A stretch of DNA of 64,000 bases. Source: Chitinophagales bacterium (GTDB lineage: Bacteria; Bacteroidota; Bacteroidia; Chitinophagales; CAVYQA01). Shown piece after piece: positions 17,251 to 49,721 of this stretch (the first letter of the stretch is position 1; each line of letters opens with the position of its first letter). The notes beneath the pieces were generated by a model. That model made no database searches. It had not been told where the DNA came from and saw nothing but the letters and a program-made list of their open reading frames with translations. Location: positions 16,955 to 80,954 of the forward strand of contig CAVYQA010000002.1 in NCBI GenBank assembly GCA_963770495.1, written 5' to 3'. The position numbers and the translations under genes were made by a program.

Positions 17251-17304
17251 AAAAGTGATTTTATGGAATACAAATTTATAAGAACTTTGGTTCTGTAAAA
17301 ATAA

Positions 17305-17389
17305 TTGCCGTTAGTTTTAACTGCACTTGCCGTCAGTTTTAACTACTTGCCGTCAGTTTTAACTACTTGCCGTCAGTTTTAACTGACGG
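17305..17389 (+). repeat. REP array, 4 tandem units of ~20 bp ending in the palindrome ccgtcagttttaactgacgg
   Basis: Units ttgccgtcagttttaactac start at 17327, 17347 and 17367 (degenerate copy at 17305). Terminal 9-bp stem 17370-17378 / 17381-17389. Confidence 0.85.
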
Positions 17390-17416
17390 ATAATAAAAGC
17401 AGCACAACCTAAGGCT

Positions 17417-17863
17417 TTAGCCCAAAACATTGCTTTCAAATTTTTCCCATCCATACTTTATTCTAAACTCCTCTATTTCTTCAGCAAATGTCTTTTTTCT
17501 GTGATGTTCTTCCTGTGCATTAATATATTTCCTTATCCTCTCAACTTGTGATTGCCCGATAGAAACAGCGAAATAATCATCCTGCCAATTTATTTTCTCT
17601 TTACACATTCCGCTTTCATTTAACCAATGTGCCGATTCACCTTTTAATAAGTGCATTGTTTTTGCAATTGTTTGTTCTTTATCCAATGAAAACAAACAAT
17701 GTACGTGATCTGTGTATCCGTTTACCACATCTATCCAAATTCCTTTGCTCCTTCCATAATTAATAATATGAGTGTATAAACTCGTTCTGATTTCTTTAGT
17801 CAGCATTGGTTGCCTGTTTTTAGTAGACCATACAGCGTGTATCCAAACTGTTACATAAGACAT
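17417..17863 (-). CDS. REP-associated tyrosine transposase (RAYT; IS200-like Y1 HUH transposase)
   Basis: VWSTKNRQP, HUH motif DHVHCLF, C-terminal YINAQEEHH (catalytic Tyr region). 148 aa, flanked by REP arrays. Confidence 0.85.
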   Translation of the reverse strand: MSYVTVWIHAVWSTKNRQPMLTKEIRTSLYTHIINYGRSKGIWIDVVNGYTDHVHCLFSLDKEQTIAKTMHLLKGESAHWLNESGMCKEKINWQDDYFAVSIGQSQVERIRKYINAQEEHHRKKTFAEEIEEFRIKYGWEKFESNVLG

Positions 17864-17917
17864 AAATTTCAGTTTTTGTTTGGGGGCTAAAGCCTAAAAT
17901 TATTATAATTTCTGTTC

Positions 17918-17984
17918 CCGTCAGTTAAAACTGACGGCAATTTCAGTTAAAACTGACGGCAATTTCTGCTCAAGCAAACGGCAA
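17918..17984 (-). repeat. REP array, about 3 units of 22 bp, inverted relative to the left array
   Basis: cccgtcagttaaaactgacggcaa, tttcagttaaaactgacggcaa, and a degenerate tttctgctcaagcaaacggcaa. Confidence 0.85.
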
Positions 17985-18017
17985 TTAAATGTTCTGAAAC
18001 AGGGGGGATTATTTCAA

Positions 18018-18401
18018 TTATTTAGCCACAACAATCTTACGCTCTTCAATGGTGTTTCCGGCAGTTATTTGCAGTAAGTAAACACCGTTGGCAAGTTGTT
18101 GCACCGGTATGGTCGTTTCAATATGTTGTGTTTTGTCTAAATTAACCGTCCACACGGTTTGACCTAAAAGGTTATACAGTTGCAACCGCACGGGTTCCTG
18201 TTGCTGGAAAGTAACCGATAGATATACAACATCACTCGAAGGATTAGGATAAAGATGAATCTGGTCAAAACCGCCGTCAGGTGTACCCGTGGCGGGGTTA
18301 TGAAGAATAGCACCCACAGGGGTTGAAAGCTGTATGGTTTGCGCATTTAAAGTAGCGGCAGCCAGCAGAAAGATTAATAATATACTTGTAAAAATTTTCA
18401 T
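18018..18401 (-). CDS. small secreted protein consisting mostly of a T9SS type-A C-terminal sorting domain
   Basis: Signal peptide MKIFTSILLIFLLAAATLNAQ (start chosen at 18401 rather than 18473). CTD: LYPNPSSDVVYLSV...LYNLLGQTV...LANGVYLLQI. Confidence 0.75.
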   Translation of the reverse strand: MKIFTSILLIFLLAAATLNAQTIQLSTPVGAILHNPATGTPDGGFDQIHLYPNPSSDVVYLSVTFQQQEPVRLQLYNLLGQTVWTVNLDKTQHIETTIPVQQLANGVYLLQITAGNTIEERKIVVAK

Positions 18402-18937
18402 TGGTATCAATTTAGCATTAAACACAAATAAAGCGTTTACACTAAGACAATAGTTACATAAATTATGCCACAAGATAGTAATATTTTATAATAAATGTAA
18501 TACCCAATTATGAACCGATGTTACAAAGTGTAGCAAATACTGAACGGCAGGGTTTAATTGCAGAAAGGTAAAAAGTTTTAAAAGTGACGCGACTATTTTT
18601 ATGGTTTACACATTTTTATTTATTTATTTGTTGCTCAACAAATTACAACAAACCGGTAAACCATCATTCTTGACGTTTTCCTGACAAAGTAAACCGAAAA
18701 TAAATGGTAAATAAAGTCAGAACAATTACTTTTTACCGTACAAAATTTTCAAAGAACGATCTTAGAAAACAAAATTAGTGATATAAGTAATACCGTTAGA
18801 AAAGTTGGGACAAGAAGTTTTAGAATAAAAGAATATGGCTTTAAGTGAAAATGGGTTCGGGGTGGGGAAGGAATATTCACGGTAATAAAGTTGCCGGGTA
18901 GTTTTTTATTCATCCAAAAAATAGTTATTTTGCTCTT

Positions 18938-19306
18938 ATGAGAAAAGACCAGAAACATAACCTGGATTATTTAAAGCAGCGTCGCCGTGATTTACGTAAA
19001 CGCCTCACGCCGGCAGAAGCCACTCTTTGGAAACAATTGCAGAATCGTAAATTAAATAACAGAAAATTCACCAAACAACACAGCATAGAAAACTTTATTG
19101 TTGATTTTTATTGTTCTGAAGAAAAATTGGTAATTGAATTAGATGGGTAAGGACACAATAATTTGGGACAGGTGAATTATGATGAAGAACGCGATAACAG
19201 GTTACAGAAATTAGGTTTTAAAGTTTTACGGTTTGAGAATAAACTTGTTTTTGATAATTTGGATTATGTGCTAATGAGTATTTGCGCCTGTTTTAAATTC
19301 ACTTAA
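18938..19306 (+). pseudogene. DUF559 (Vsr-like endonuclease domain) gene with an in-frame TAA at 19148-19150
   Basis: LTPAEATLWKQLQNRKL...FIVDFYCSEEKLVIELDG*GH...ERDNRLQKLGFKVLRFEN. The same frame continues to the TAA at 19304-19306. Confidence 0.8.
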
Positions 19307-19325
19307 ACTATCATTACACACCCAA

Positions 19326-19472
19326 CTCCCCTCCTGTTTTTAGGAGGGGACAGAGCGATGAGCGCAGCCGGGAGGTTTTTTTTAATTAAATAATATTAGC
19401 TGATTTTTTTAACAGACTTGACCTCCCCGGCTCCCCGCAAAGCTTAGCCCCCTCCTAAAAACAGGAGGGGAG
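19326..19472. repeat. ~147-bp foldback element with two GC-rich hairpins in opposite orientation
   Basis: tcccctcctgtttttaggagggga (19327-19350) and cccctcctaaaaacaggagggg (19449-19470) are reverse complements. Inner arms gccgggaggt / acctccccggc, with an AT-rich centre. Confidence 0.7.
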
Positions 19473-19571
19473 CTTTAAGGTCAGTGTGTTTTTCAATTGC
19501 CGCGCCTGTTAAGGCGCGGTGAAATAATAAAAGAATAAGGGCTTTAGGTGAAAATGGGGTTGGGGGTGAGG

Positions 19572-19616
19572 TACCTGTTTTCAGGTATATTGCAAAATAC
19601 CTGTTTCTGGGTATAT
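19572..19616 (+). promoter_or_regulatory. two dyad-like direct repeats upstream of the island operon (possible operator)
   Basis: tacctgttttcaggtatat (19572-19590; perfect TACCTG-N4-CAGGTA) and tacctgtttctgggtatat (19598-19616), 26 bp apart and 66-110 nt upstream of the ATG at 19682. Confidence 0.25.
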
Positions 19617-19681
19617 ATTATATGTAATATTTATTGCAGTTTTGTTGAGGGAAATATTTAAGTAACTTTAATTAAAAAAAT

Positions 19682-20110
19682 ATGCTTAATACCCCTAGAG
19701 GAAAACTTGGAATTGCTTATGCAGTTATTCTAATAAGTATTTTACTCTTAATAAGACTTCATTTCTTCTATGACTATTATACAGAGAATGATTTTTTGTA
19801 CTTACCGTGTCGATTTTGGTGGTCTTTGGAAAGCATTCTTTTAGCTTTTGTAGTTATTGTTTTTAATGGCGCAAAAAACGATACAAGAAAATGGAAACAA
19901 ATTTTGATACCTTATTTAATAACTTACCCAATCTATATAGTTGTTATAAGCTGCCTTTTATTTGCTTTTGCCAATTCAAACGATGAATTAAAAAACAACT
20001 TGTACTACCCTTTTTCATTTGGTATGGGCATCTTTTTGGGAAGGTTAACCGATAAAATTATTAATAACCTATCTTCTTGGATTGAAAAAATGACTGATAA
20101 GATAACATAA
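19682..20110 (+). CDS. hypothetical small integral membrane protein (about 4 TM)
   Basis: 142 aa with four hydrophobic segments. AT-rich codon usage. Lies 12 nt upstream of the next ORF, so probably an operon. Confidence 0.55.
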   Translation: MLNTPRGKLGIAYAVILISILLLIRLHFFYDYYTENDFLYLPCRFWWSLESILLAFVVIVFNGAKNDTRKWKQILIPYLITYPIYIVVISCLLFAFANSNDELKNNLYYPFSFGMGIFLGRLTDKIINNLSSWIEKMTDKIT

Positions 20111-20122
20111 TCCTTATATATT

Positions 20123-20797
20123 ATGAGTAAAAGTGATAAACTCAATCAACTCTTTGAAAAATGGCAAAAGGTTAACCCCGCCTATGAAGAAAATTTTAGG
20201 TATGACGGAATAATCAATGAAGACTGTTATGAAAAAGCAAAACATAAAATTCTATTTATTTGTAAAGAACCTAATGGTAAAAACCATGAAGGGCATATAG
20301 GTGATTTCAGAAAGGAATGGAATGAAGAAGGGGCACAATACCCTTTTTCATATAGAATTGCTGAATGGTCATACGGTATTTTGAATAATTTTCCTTATTT
20401 AGATAATATTTACAATTCTGAAAATTGGGAAATTCCTTATAAAAATGCTTTGCGCTCCATTGCATTTATGAATCTGAAAAAAAGTGCCGGTAAAGGAACA
20501 TCAGAGTATTCTACTATGATAAAAGTCTTAGAGAATAGAGAAGAGAAAAAATATATACTTGATGAAATAAAAATTATTGATCCTGAAATAATTATTTTAG
20601 GTTTAACATGGAAAGAATTAAGCATTGAATTGATTAATGATATTGAATGGACTAACTCAGGGTATCAAATACTAATTGGCAAATGGGGGAAAAGAAAGGT
20701 TATAAATTTTTATCACCCATCATCGCGGAATGCACCATCAGCTGCATATTCATTGTTACAAAACATAGTTAGATCAAAAGAGTTTATTAATCTTTAA
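20123..20797 (+). CDS. hypothetical protein with uracil-DNA-glycosylase-superfamily-like motifs
   Basis: KILFICKEPNG (compare motif 1, GxxPG), SIAFMNLKKS (compare family-4 TNxVK), VINFYHPSSRN (compare HPSPRN/HPSPL motif 2). The order and spacing are plausible for the UDG fold. Confidence 0.55.
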   Translation: MSKSDKLNQLFEKWQKVNPAYEENFRYDGIINEDCYEKAKHKILFICKEPNGKNHEGHIGDFRKEWNEEGAQYPFSYRIAEWSYGILNNFPYLDNIYNSENWEIPYKNALRSIAFMNLKKSAGKGTSEYSTMIKVLENREEKKYILDEIKIIDPEIIILGLTWKELSIELINDIEWTNSGYQILIGKWGKRKVINFYHPSSRNAPSAAYSLLQNIVRSKEFINL

Positions 20798-20852
20798 TAT
20801 TTAGTTTGTGGTTGGTGGATTTTATTTGAGTTTTTTTAATACCAAACACGAC

Positions 20853-21962
20853 TTAGTCTCCTGTTTCTTTTTCTTTCCAAATTGAAGTTGAGTATCCTGT
20901 TTTACCATCAATTAAAGGAAGTCTTTTAGTAAATGCTTCTTCAGGATTGAATATTGCTTCTTGTTGCATTATAAAATTAATAAGATGAATTGAAATTGGA
21001 ACACCGAGTGCAATTCTAATTTTGATTAAAATTTGTCCAATATAAATAATGTCATTTAACCAGTCTACCGCTTCTTCTAGTGTAATAACAAGAGTAGGTG
21101 GGTCAAAATGATTAAGATGATTTCTTAAAGTCTTTAATTTATTAAGTTTAGGTAGTTCGGCATCAATATCCAAATTGTTGCCTGTAATTTGATACACCCA
21201 ATGCAATTTATCTTTTAATCTCCTATTGTTTCTATCACCAAGTTTTTCTTTGTCAAAAATATTCCACCCCTTTTCTGGTGCGTACTTTGCCTTTATGTAA
21301 ATCTGAATAAGTGTTATTTCAAGAAGAGAAATTGAGTCATTAATTAGAGCTCTTAAATCTAAAATCCATTCAGGTTTTAGGCAATTTTCCGAATTCTCAA
21401 TTAGTAATTTTCTCTCTCTAATAATCCTCTTTATAAGTTGTGGTTGGAACGTTGTAAAAATGTGCCCTTCACGGTCCAATTTCGGTATTATAGGATATTT
21501 ATTTCCATATTGCATTTGAGGGGTTCCATCAACAACAAACACCGCTTCTTTATTTTTATCTTCGAAAAAATGGTAGTTTATACTTAGGTCTAAAGATATG
21601 TCAAGCCAAAAACACTCCATAGAAGGAAGATTAAATTTTAATGGCTCAAATTCTCCATCGTCCTTAAGTGTTTTAGTAAATAAAAGATAATTTATGTTTT
21701 TAGATTCAAGAGTTTCCTTTGTTTTAGGATGTTGCCATTTTATACGATAGTTATTATTGTCCTTTTTCCATTGCTTGCTTGTTTGTCTTATTTCTTTTAA
21801 ATAAAAGCTCGTTAAAATTTTTGCGGCGTGAGTTAGGAATCCGGTTATAGGTTTGCCAGTAAACAAAATATATTTATGATTGGGATCCCGTTCATATCCT
21901 TGTTGTCTTAATGCTGATAAAAGTTTACCATCCATATTAAGAATAAATTTCTCATTACTCAT
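20853..21962 (-). CDS. hypothetical protein, helical C-terminal half with a HEPN-like R-x4-H motif
   Basis: KLKTLRNHLNHFDPP (R-N-x3-H) sits in a predicted all-alpha C-terminal half. The N-terminal ~200 aa is unassigned. Very AT-rich. Confidence 0.5.
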   Translation of the reverse strand: MSNEKFILNMDGKLLSALRQQGYERDPNHKYILFTGKPITGFLTHAAKILTSFYLKEIRQTSKQWKKDNNNYRIKWQHPKTKETLESKNINYLLFTKTLKDDGEFEPLKFNLPSMECFWLDISLDLSINYHFFEDKNKEAVFVVDGTPQMQYGNKYPIIPKLDREGHIFTTFQPQLIKRIIRERKLLIENSENCLKPEWILDLRALINDSISLLEITLIQIYIKAKYAPEKGWNIFDKEKLGDRNNRRLKDKLHWVYQITGNNLDIDAELPKLNKLKTLRNHLNHFDPPTLVITLEEAVDWLNDIIYIGQILIKIRIALGVPISIHLINFIMQQEAIFNPEEAFTKRLPLIDGKTGYSTSIWKEKETGD

Positions 21963-22227
21963 TGGAATTGATTTTAAATTAAAATATGCCCCTTTTGGTT
22001 TTTAATCATTTACATTCTATCATAAATATAAAATTTTATTATCTATAATCAATATGCCGTGTCGCGTATCTCACACCCCGCGCCCAAAAAAGCTGTCCCA
22101 ACTTCTCGCACAGTGTAACTTCTAAAAGTAATTTTGTAAATCGTTCTTTGAAATGCTGTTTAGTTAAAGGTAGCCTTGCCACCCTCTAACTCCCTAAAGG
22201 GAGAACCGCTCCGCTCACCACAAACCC

Positions 22228-22256
22228 AAAGTCCCCTTCAGGGGATTTAGGGGTGA
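22228..22256 (-). repeat. 27-nt hairpin repeat family copy (reverse orientation)
   Basis: aaagtccccttcaggggatttaggggtga. Confidence 0.7.
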
Positions 22257-22442
22257 TTTGGTTTTTATAACGACAACAAAAGCGACAACAAACTGACAAG
22301 AACCGCAGATAAAATTTCCTGACGGGGTTGTTATAATGCATTGAATAACAAAAAAATAAAAAAATGAATGTCAGAAACGCTAAAATTGTTGTCGGTTTAT
22401 AAAACCTTTTACCTGTCTCGTTCGCAAAAAGACGAATCCGTC

Positions 22443-22955
22443 CTATGGTGGAGGGAGGAGGTTTAACACACCGCTCACTTTAGCTTCATGCTCCAGCAGC
22501 CATTGTTTGCGCCACAAGCCGCCGCCATAGCCAATCAGCGAGCCATCGCTGCCAATAACCCGGTGGCAGGGAACAATTACACACACATTATTACTGCCGT
22601 TAGCCGTGCCCACCGCCCTTATACTTTTCGGGTTGCCGATTTTCTTAGCCAGTTGCAGGTAGGATATGGTTTTCCCAAGCGGAATATTGCGCAGTTCCTG
22701 CCACACTTTTTGCTGAAACGGCGTTCCTTCCTGCTCTATTGGCAGTGTAAACGCTGCCCGCTTACCGCTGAAATATTCGGTTAACTGTTTCACACAGTCT
22801 TTAAGCACCTTTGGCGGGTGCGAGCTTTCATGCTCTAAATTTTCGGTAAGAAGAACGGAAACAACCGCCTCATCAGTGGTTTTTATTTCGGCATAACCTA
22901 TAGGCGAATGCAGATATGACGTATACAAATCAGTGCGGGGTGCAGCGATTTTCAT
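22443..22955 (-). CDS. ogt: methylated-DNA--protein-cysteine methyltransferase
   Basis: VIVPCHRVIGSDGSLIGYGGG active-site PCHR motif, with an HTH-like region TISYLQLAKKIG. Confidence 0.9.
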   Translation of the reverse strand: MKIAAPRTDLYTSYLHSPIGYAEIKTTDEAVVSVLLTENLEHESSHPPKVLKDCVKQLTEYFSGKRAAFTLPIEQEGTPFQQKVWQELRNIPLGKTISYLQLAKKIGNPKSIRAVGTANGSNNVCVIVPCHRVIGSDGSLIGYGGGLWRKQWLLEHEAKVSGVLNLLPPP

Positions 22956-39644: not shown

Positions 39645-39700
39645 AGTGTTTGTTTTGATAGATATACGAAAAACAAAACAAAGTGGATTTTAATTTCAAT

Positions 39701-39728
39701 CACCCCTAAATCCCCTAAAGGGGACTTT
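39701..39728 (+). repeat. 27-nt hairpin repeat family copy
   Basis: cacccctaaatcccctaaaggggacttt lies between the convergent ends of msrB and rny. Confidence 0.7.
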
Positions 39729-49273: not shown

Positions 49274-49300
49274 AAAGTCCCCTTTAGGGGATTTAGGGGT
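49274..49300 (-). repeat. 27-nt hairpin repeat family copy (reverse orientation)
   Basis: aaagtcccctttaggggatttaggggt. Confidence 0.7.
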
Positions 49301-49693: not shown

Positions 49694-49721
49694 CACCCCT
49701 AAATCCCCTAAAGGGGACTTT
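49694..49721 (+). repeat. 27-nt hairpin repeat family copy
   Basis: cacccctaaatcccctaaaggggacttt starts immediately after the erpA stop. Confidence 0.7.

Follow-up and report, generated by a model that had tools for sequence, protein, structure and literature searches.

An AT-rich islet of defence-type genes with long imperfect inverted repeats at its ends, inserted beside ogt in a Chitinophagaceae bacterium

An established gene-moving route is that of the TIME-COMP and IMU type, in which 1-10 kb of cargo, mobilised in trans, lies between mostly inverted, transposase-less elements of 244-288 bp; each of these bounding elements is a MITE (miniature inverted-repeat transposable element), and direct repeats of 5-6 bp flank the outermost inverted repeats (PMC13367494). 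The locus described here comes from a 64,000-nt window of a Chitinophagaceae bacterium (the window is the whole stretch of DNA that was analysed, and all coordinates refer to it). It consists of an AT-rich insert of about 3.86 kb, situated between ogt and a gene for a protein with a type IX secretion system sorting domain (the T9SS-tail gene), and its two ends, hereafter the arms, are inverted copies of each other. This islet resembles the TIME-COMP / IMU type in its non-coding inverted bounding repeats of 250-350 nt, its accessory cargo in the 1-10 kb range, the absence of an internal transposase and an interior prone to later rearrangement. That class is defined by terminal repeats within each bounding element, by the 5-6-bp direct repeats and by Tn3-type ends. 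In the islet, neither arm has terminal inverted repeats belonging to it alone, the two arms are 73% identical instead of near-identical, no 5-6-bp direct repeats flank the unit, and its termini, judged by eye, are not of the GGGG type of Tn3 ends. Moreover, no other copies were found and no partner transposon is known, the host replicon is a Bacteroidota chromosome, and the cargo is of defence type in place of resistance genes. The islet is TIME-COMP / IMU-like in its working, and not a member of the class.

Long terminal inverted repeats (TIRs) are also found in eukaryotic Foldback elements and in casposons, whose TIRs reach several hundred bp, and non-autonomous copies exist in such families. 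The arms of the islet are likewise hundreds of bp long, imperfect and internally structured, but the islet is single copy, with neither an identified integrase or transposase relative nor a target-site duplication, and we know of no bacterial family with such ends. Like Tn7-like elements, which insert just downstream of a conserved gene, the islet has long, structured ends and sits about 0-22 nt beyond the stop codon of the conserved ogt gene, whereas tns genes and a 5-bp duplication are missing, the ends start with TGC and not TGT, and there is no array of one ~20-bp site common to both ends. Inverted repeats flanking a segment, with promoter-like boxes involved, recall the invertons and shufflons of Bacteroidota; inverton repeats, however, are roughly 20-30 bp, and those of the islet are ten times longer and only 73% identical, with outward promoters located within the repeats, no adjacent recombinase, and a unit that is absent as a whole from related genomes. 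As for defence islands, they are not normally bounded by long inverted repeats.

The site is empty in related genomes. Relatives obtained from a large protein collection and contig look-ups provided five distinct contigs from four lineages, with ogt proteins 83% (L099), 78% (L086), 75-78% (L088-L091) and 74% (L087) identical to that of the window; among GTDB representative genomes, the best ogt match was 58% identical, without synteny, and of no use for an empty-site comparison. The gene order CGS-CBS-ogt-T9SS-tail gene-DinB-DHOase is kept in all four related lineages, with flanking proteins 52-88% identical to those of the window, and ogt is separated from the T9SS-tail gene by 124-180 nt only. 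No match to the arms, to the cargo genes (DUF559, a 4-TM membrane protein, p224 and p369, described below) or to a nearby RAYT gene was found in these lineages, and their spacer is homologous to window positions 18405-18557, i.e. to sequence outside the arms. Since the flanking order is kept around a spacer of this size and homology, the ~3.86 kb, arms included, is an insertion: positions ~18558-22420/22442 form a lineage-specific, accessory islet, and the arms are the termini of the inserted DNA, not a native palindrome. An earlier sequence-only reading of this DNA had placed the segment between ogt and a T9SS gene and regarded it as accessory, and both points are borne out by the five contigs, in which ogt stands directly beside the T9SS-tail gene. 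Its proposal that an island entered the apex of a palindrome already present cannot hold if that palindrome was native, as the empty sites of 124-180 nt hold no arm sequence.

On the left side, homology with the relatives' spacers ends at ~18557, no more than ~5 nt from 18560-18562, where the inverted-repeat similarity begins. On the right side, the inverted-repeat similarity stops at 22418-22426, 17-25 nt short of the ogt stop codon, and a clear counterpart of positions 22421-22442 was sought in the relatives' ogt/T9SS spacers but none was found. With a slash at the junction, the candidate boundaries read ...TTTAAT/TGCAGAAAGG on the left and CCTGTCTCGTTCGCA/AAAAGAC or /CTATGG on the right. 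That the repeats end where the insertion ends speaks strongly for a unit that travelled as DNA with long inverted termini on both sides. Directly beside the insert, the 3' end of ogt is damaged: a loss of about 11-12 nt puts the native TAA out of frame, and the gene reads through to a new TAG. At 22443-22470, the window ogt ends in ...SGVLNLLPPP before its stop, vs. ...xxLF in five relatives, including P0334, a JGI ogt protein that falls in the window protein's cluster at ≥90% identity and has retained the native C-terminus, ...RLF. It is the damaged form that is derived.

The arms were compared by local alignment of positions 18400-18900 with the reverse complement of 22000-22500, and 500 dinucleotide-preserving shuffles served as reference. 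The best alignment (18562-18658 with 22322-22418) scores 58, vs. a shuffle mean of 22.3 and a maximum of 36 (0/500), and vs. 22 for the same-strand control of the arm regions, i.e. without reverse complementing. With the outer blocks removed, the inner halves (18746-18812 with 22094-22153) score 52, the shuffle maximum being 28 (0/500), and the highest score among 118 control pairs of 500-nt windows lying 3.6 kb apart across the window is 31. A repeat search and blastn each recover the same two collinear blocks. The inverted relationship proposed by the sequence-only reading thus stands far above both shuffles and window-wide controls. The outer block comprises 75 matches, 20 mismatches and 10 gap positions; for the inner block, 50 matches, 11 mismatches and 7 gap positions were computed, close to the earlier hand count of 49 identities in 62 positions with one 6-nt gap. 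Between them, the central third of the arms is ~61% identical and essentially unalignable. In a global alignment, the arms reach inward to ~18877 and ~22067 via a G-rich motif. They are about 320 and 350 nt long, and the identity over the whole arm is 73% at aligned positions, or 61% counting gaps. This arm-to-arm divergence is larger than that between the orthologous spacers of the window and L099 (82 and 72% identity, respectively). Two inverted cores, ATCGTTCTTTGAAA (14 nt) and TGTCCCAACTT (11 nt), are perfectly conserved, and the outermost 19 nt also rank high in conservation. Within the 64-kb window, the two arm ends are the only places with the terminal motif AGAMAGGTAAAARGTTTTA, and the combined inner-block pattern matches only the two arm sites.

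The best-conserved block of each arm contains an outward-facing TAATTTTG box of the -7 type of Bacteroidota, at 18777..18770 on the minus strand and 22129..22136 on the plus strand, in the positions and orientation already noted from the sequence. The TAnnTTTG class is, however, common (1.16 occurrences per kb in the window), and TTTG at -33 is absent from both boxes. Outside the islet, a TATCTTGTG promoter box in the native ogt/T9SS spacer is conserved in all relatives examined. The right arm also holds an extra insert at 22181-22258, which had been noted from the sequence and is indeed missing from the left arm in the alignment. Part of it (22228-22258) is copied at four other sites of the window (39698-39728, 49694-49721, 49274-49300 and 1219-1243), so the insert is a host repeat of the repetitive extragenic palindromic (REP) type.

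Copies of this dispersed REP-like hairpin, AAGTCCCCTTCAGGGGATTTAGGGGTG, are 92-97% identical, and same-strain Logan contigs break at such hairpins. The hairpin is presumably a substrate of the nearby RAYT, an IS200-like Y1 transposase encoded at 17417-17863, within the 17251-18017 interval between the T9SS-tail gene and DinB. As these two genes are ~100 nt apart in L087, L088 and L091, the RAYT gene is another lineage-specific insertion, lying 0.7 kb away from the islet. At the same spot, a different gene, of 279 aa, is found in L086.

Hairpin-like inverted repeats are found inside each arm, namely ATGGTTTAC/GTAAACCAT within 18601-18664 on the left and CGACAACAA/TTGTTGTCG within 22262-22403 on the right. 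They are of marginal significance, ~3-4% of shuffles reaching their scores. Small apical stems (TTGTTG..CAACAA vs. TTGTTAT..ATAACAA) show one compensatory change from G-C to A-T.

Several identities were considered for the arms and rejected. They are not clearly structured RNAs: Rfam gave no match at gathering thresholds over the whole window and nothing relevant at E ≤ 5 over the region, only two tRNAs and noise being returned by these scans, and the folding z-scores of -1.9 and -1.2 are not clearly more stable than shuffles. Neither are they coding, since the substitutions in the shared 'CPNFS..T...NFV' frame fall 3/3/4 by codon position, a start codon is lacking and the left copy is interrupted by a stop; the apparent shared peptide is explained by DNA identity alone. 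As for complete MITEs, the outer 50 nt compared with the reverse-complemented inner end of an arm score 13-16, within the shuffle range. Arrays of repeated binding sites in the style of Tn7, Mu or IS21 were likewise set aside, because the sub-repeats differ between the two arms.

Between the arms, the coding part is foreign by composition. In 400-nt sliding windows, GC is 0.28-0.31 across 19600-22000 vs. 0.40-0.55 in the flanks, and by gene it is 0.29-0.31 for the cargo vs. 0.40-0.51 for host genes, which bears out the AT-rich character first estimated from single lines of sequence. Host intergenic DNA ranges from 0.28 to 0.38, so that the GC of the arms (0.30 and 0.36) is uninformative on their origin.

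Concerning the cargo, the DUF559 gene was rightly described as decayed, a single TAA breaking it. A direct repeat of 44-50 nt, 87% identical, flanks a 702-bp cassette that includes this gene and its GC-rich palindrome, and the cassette would be a secondary insertion; such a repeat is too long for a transposase target duplication, which suggests site-specific or homologous integration. On a JGI contig, a DUF559 gene lies within a type I restriction-modification operon, beside a p224 homologue. The 142-aa protein that follows the cassette in the window has no significant match in Pfam, NCBIfam, PADLOC or PHROGs and is not a conserved partner of p224; its membrane nature, read from the sequence, was retained, with one strong hydrophobic segment fewer than had been counted.

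Brig1 is a defence glycosylase whose best structural relative is the S. tokodaii family 4 uracil-DNA glycosylase (UDG), 4ZBY (PMC11078745). The predicted structure of p224 has a UDG-superfamily fold with the same best structural neighbour, a likeness of fold. Foldseek matched it to 1l9g, 4zby, UdgX and TDG at E-values of about 1e-4 and a probability of 1.0, the range over UDG family 4, UdgX, TDG and MUG being 9e-5 to 1e-3, and the family profile gave a weak match to 4zbx. The UDG-like assignment made by the sequence-only reading is therefore confirmed at fold level, and p224 may be regarded as a candidate defence glycosylase. Its homologues, ~200 in number, occur in Dnd and type I restriction-modification islands. 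In the four loci looked at (L100-L103), they are always preceded by a soluble open reading frame (ORF) of 76-79 aa, with a 4-nt overlap, and their neighbours are either a type I restriction-modification system or DndB/C/D-like genes, an arrangement that suggests a two-gene module. In the window, the 4-TM protein stands where the homologues have the small soluble ORF.

The protein p369 is predicted to combine two domains, and its C-terminal one is in line with the HEPN-like label given to it earlier. HEPN domains are marked by a four-helix fold and a conserved Rx4-6H motif. The top Foldseek matches are HepT and other HEPN toxins (target TM 0.6-0.7, although at an E-value of only 0.4), and R280-N281-H282...H285, an Rx4H motif like that of HEPN Abi and toxin proteins, is invariant in 41 sequences. 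No Pfam match was found for p369, HEPN included, and none of its 92 homologues has a Pfam domain. It may thus be a HEPN-domain protein, possibly an RNase. The homologues are single genes beside Fic, HATPase_c_3, HTH and AbiJ-caspase genes, and no long inverted repeats were found around them. Upstream of its closest homologues (66% identical; L104-L106) stand a thioredoxin-like gene and an overlapping ORF of 66 aa; no such overlapping small ORF accompanies p369 in the window.

Like the genes of defence islets, p224 and p369 thus have homologues in Dnd, restriction-modification and Abi neighbourhoods, but unlike known defence systems neither fits a PADLOC model at a meaningful E-value (a chance-level 0.014 for p224, none for p369), nor do they match PHROGs, Pfam or NCBIfam at that level. 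Homologues of both occur singly, in varied defence-type neighbourhoods and without the arms; therefore the cargo is a mosaic of independently circulating genes of defence-island type, whose role in defence is suggested by fold and neighbourhood. No ORF of at least 40 aa in the segment has a Pfam match to a recombinase or transposase, in agreement with the earlier statement that the segment holds none, and no recombinase lies among the adjacent flanking genes scanned (~16.7-23.0 kb). The coordinates of all features are given in Table 1.

Table 1. Features of the islet and its flanks, in window coordinates.
Feature	Position	Strand	Remarks
T9SS C-terminal sorting-domain gene (flank)	18018..18404	-	PF18962, E 4e-15; orthologues adjoin ogt in relatives
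Native ogt/T9SS spacer with the T9SS gene's own promoter region	18405..18557	-	Outside the insertion; 82% identical at aligned positions to L099 and L087 spacers
Left arm (left terminus of insertion), non-coding	18558..18877		Inverted match to right arm; GC 0.30
Left outer block	18560..18660		Pairs with 22320-22420; 79% identity at aligned positions
Left inner block	18745..18812		Pairs with 22094-22156; 82% identity; carries outward TAATTTTG and ATCGTTCTTTGAAA
Inner end of left arm, first direct-repeat copy	18824..18877	+	87% identical to 19526-19571; G-rich part aligns inverted with 22069-22091
DUF559 (Vsr-like endonuclease) pseudogene	18938..19306	+	PF04480, E 1.3e-32 spanning one in-frame TAA at 19151-19153
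GC-rich palindromic repeat 3' of DUF559	19326..19472		47-nt arms, 83% complementary
Second direct-repeat copy	19526..19577	+	With 18824-18877 brackets the 702-bp DUF559 cassette
142-aa membrane protein (4-TM protein)	19682..20110	+	Three strong hydrophobic segments by hydropathy plot; four counted in the sequence-only reading
p224, predicted UDG-superfamily fold	20123..20797	+	AlphaFold2 pLDDT 92; Foldseek
p369	20853..21962	-	Predicted N-terminal alpha/beta domain and C-terminal HEPN-like helical domain; AlphaFold2 pLDDT 90
Right arm (right terminus of insertion)	22067..22426		Inverted match to left arm; GC 0.36 without the repeat insert
Right inner block	22094..22156		Carries outward TAATTTTG (22129..22136, plus strand)
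Host REP-like hairpin pair inserted in right arm	22181..22258		Secondary; absent from left arm; GC 0.54
Right outer block	22320..22420		Pairs with 18560-18660
22-nt stretch from end of inverted-repeat similarity to ogt stop codon	22421..22442		Possibly native spacer, filler or asymmetric element end
ogt (flank)	22443..22955	-	Pfam matches; C-terminus altered in window lineage

The unit is possibly, and this is the reading that we tentatively prefer, a non-autonomous or fossil cargo element bounded by TIRs and mobilised in trans. One small element, with long imperfect TIRs as its ends and no mobility gene of its own, would have been acquired horizontally and inserted once, only in the window lineage, into the spacer of ~180 nt, immediately downstream of ogt and still upstream of the promoter of the T9SS-tail gene. 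The enzyme, probably supplied in trans, would have recognised the conserved outer terminal block and perhaps also the inner one. Because arm-to-arm divergence exceeds that of the orthologous spacers, and the relatives lack the insert, the simplest reading, if rates were roughly neutral and equal, is that the arms had diverged before arrival and were already unlike each other, instead of being identical copies made at insertion. Afterwards, the host REP hairpin pair and the 702-bp DUF559 cassette with its 44-50-nt duplication would have entered a unit whose original size, without both, is about 3.08 kb. The payload would be defence-island-type genes (the UDG-fold protein, the HEPN-domain protein and the small membrane protein), and the element is probably immobile now. 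Transcription from the left -7 box would run in sense towards the T9SS gene, and that from the right one antisense into ogt. We infer that the unit was mobile, that its arms serve for recognition and that an enzyme acted in trans, and likewise the activity of the promoters, the defence function and the order of the secondary events.

Of the non-autonomous foldback-type mobile element put forward by the sequence-only reading, the position of the arms at the insertion ends is upheld, whereas neither a target-site duplication nor a second copy of the arms was found, and these are among the observations that weigh against the element mobilised in trans. No direct repeat is present at either candidate boundary, although a target-site duplication could have decayed, and 16-22 nt separate the end of the similarity from the ogt stop at the right junction. 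By the standard of functional TIRs, 73% identity with a middle that cannot be aligned is poor. The arm sub-motifs differ, GGTTTAC being repeated in the left arm and CGACAACAA in the right, which fits badly with arrays of binding sites for one protein at both ends. Further arm copies were sought without success in the 64-kb window, in loci totalling ~1.5 Mb, in IMG/VR and in plasmid and phage collections: three patterns run against IMG/VR gave nothing or AT-rich noise, and blastn against plasmids and phages gave nothing. In a metagenome scan, the exact inner-block pattern matched seven contig ends, all of them the right end of one multi-copy IS21-family element, and no partner transposase is known for the arms.

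Part of this evidence would suit an arrival in which the arms played no role, a short fragment of a donor chromosome being integrated by illegitimate or homology-facilitated recombination, with the arms as an old inverted duplication of a donor regulatory region (promoter plus leader) that lie near the ends because the fragment is short. In its favour are the lack of a target-site duplication and the 16-22 nt at the right junction, which resemble filler DNA, together with the shortened ogt and its shifted stop, more like untidy recombination than clean transposition; arms that carry a promoter-like box in their best-conserved block, had already diverged on arrival and belong to no family found also agree with it. 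For an internal duplication, however, it would be an unlikely coincidence that the repeat similarity comes within ~5 nt of the left and ≤25 nt of the right boundary, or that the outermost 19 nt rank among the best-conserved arm parts, and TAnnTTTG alone is a common motif. We therefore hold such an arrival to be unlikely, though serious enough to be weighed. Clearly less probable is a history in two steps, in which a foreign foldback MITE-like element of ~650 bp, its arms back to back, came first and the AT-rich gene cargo entered its centre later, which is the palindrome proposal of the sequence-only reading with a foreign palindrome in place of a native one. The arms bound the insertion exactly, the interior is a mosaic with later arrivals (the DUF559 cassette between 44-50-nt repeats and the REP insert), the cargo genes occur elsewhere independently of each other and each arm has weak inverted repeats; but these repeats are only marginally above chance, no relative has the arms without the cargo, all empty sites being without both, and the collections searched hold no free-standing foldback copy.

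The seven metagenomic matches bear on a further possibility, that of a fossil composite transposon in which two inverted insertion sequence (IS) copies once flanked the cargo and left the last ~300 nt of each as arms. The IS21-family element concerned (L092-L098, from JGI samples Ga0209835 and Ga0116204) is about 2.8 kb long, with an IstA of 525 aa and an IstB of 240 aa, and has at least 7 copies; assemblies break off at its right end. Directly after its istB stop, the element has a block of about 30 nt (GTAATTTTGT..AAATCGTTCTTTGAAA) in common with both arms (18747-18780 and 22126-22153). Yet this similarity amounts to the searched pattern plus 3-7 extra bases, so that its score is subject to ascertainment bias; no remnant of istA or istB was found in the island (blastx against IstA and IstB, best E 4.7), the G-rich terminal repeats of the IS21-family element are absent from the arms, and the inter-arm substitutions show no codon-position bias (3/3/4). 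The arms were accordingly rejected as IS21 ends, the ~30-nt similarity was treated as a coincidence or a shared short motif, and a fossil composite is very improbable. Even less credence can be given to an invertible segment, also named by the sequence-only reading, in which a recombinase encoded elsewhere would flip the 18.8-22.1 kb region between short conserved arm cores. The perfect inverted cores and the documented inversion between inverted bounding elements of TIME-COMPs (PMC13367494) would allow it, but no recombinase lies in or beside the segment, and two same-strain short-read contigs (L001 and L002) show only the window orientation at the junction of the inner right arm and the cargo. 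Furthermore, identity between the arms is only 73%, their length exceeds that of Bacteroidota inverton repeats (roughly 20-30 bp) by an order of magnitude, and a flip would leave the outward promoters and the flanks equivalent in both orientations, with no obvious switch.

The islet has an unusual architecture: its inverted ends are long, imperfect and orphan, it shows neither a recombinase nor a target-site duplication, and it was inserted directly beyond a conserved gene. A broader conjecture, which we regard as doubtful, is that the arms define an undescribed family of transposase-less elements with long (~320-bp) TIRs in Chitinophagaceae, which would carry defence genes one at a time into spacers that directly follow conserved genes, mobilised in trans by an enzyme that recognises only the conserved blocks and leaves no target-site duplication, while the outward promoters would rewire the expression of neighbours. 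If the arms are only a fossil duplication, the unit would be an ordinary small genomic islet. If they are real mobility ends, it would illustrate in compact form how single defence genes are moved in Bacteroidota with no recombinase attached, and the two conserved blocks would then provide a sequence handle for finding more such islets and the missing enzyme. The islet also flags two uncharacterised, widespread candidate defence proteins: p224, with its predicted UDG fold, from Dnd and restriction-modification islands, and the putative HEPN-domain protein p369, of 369 aa, with about 90 relatives and no Pfam family.

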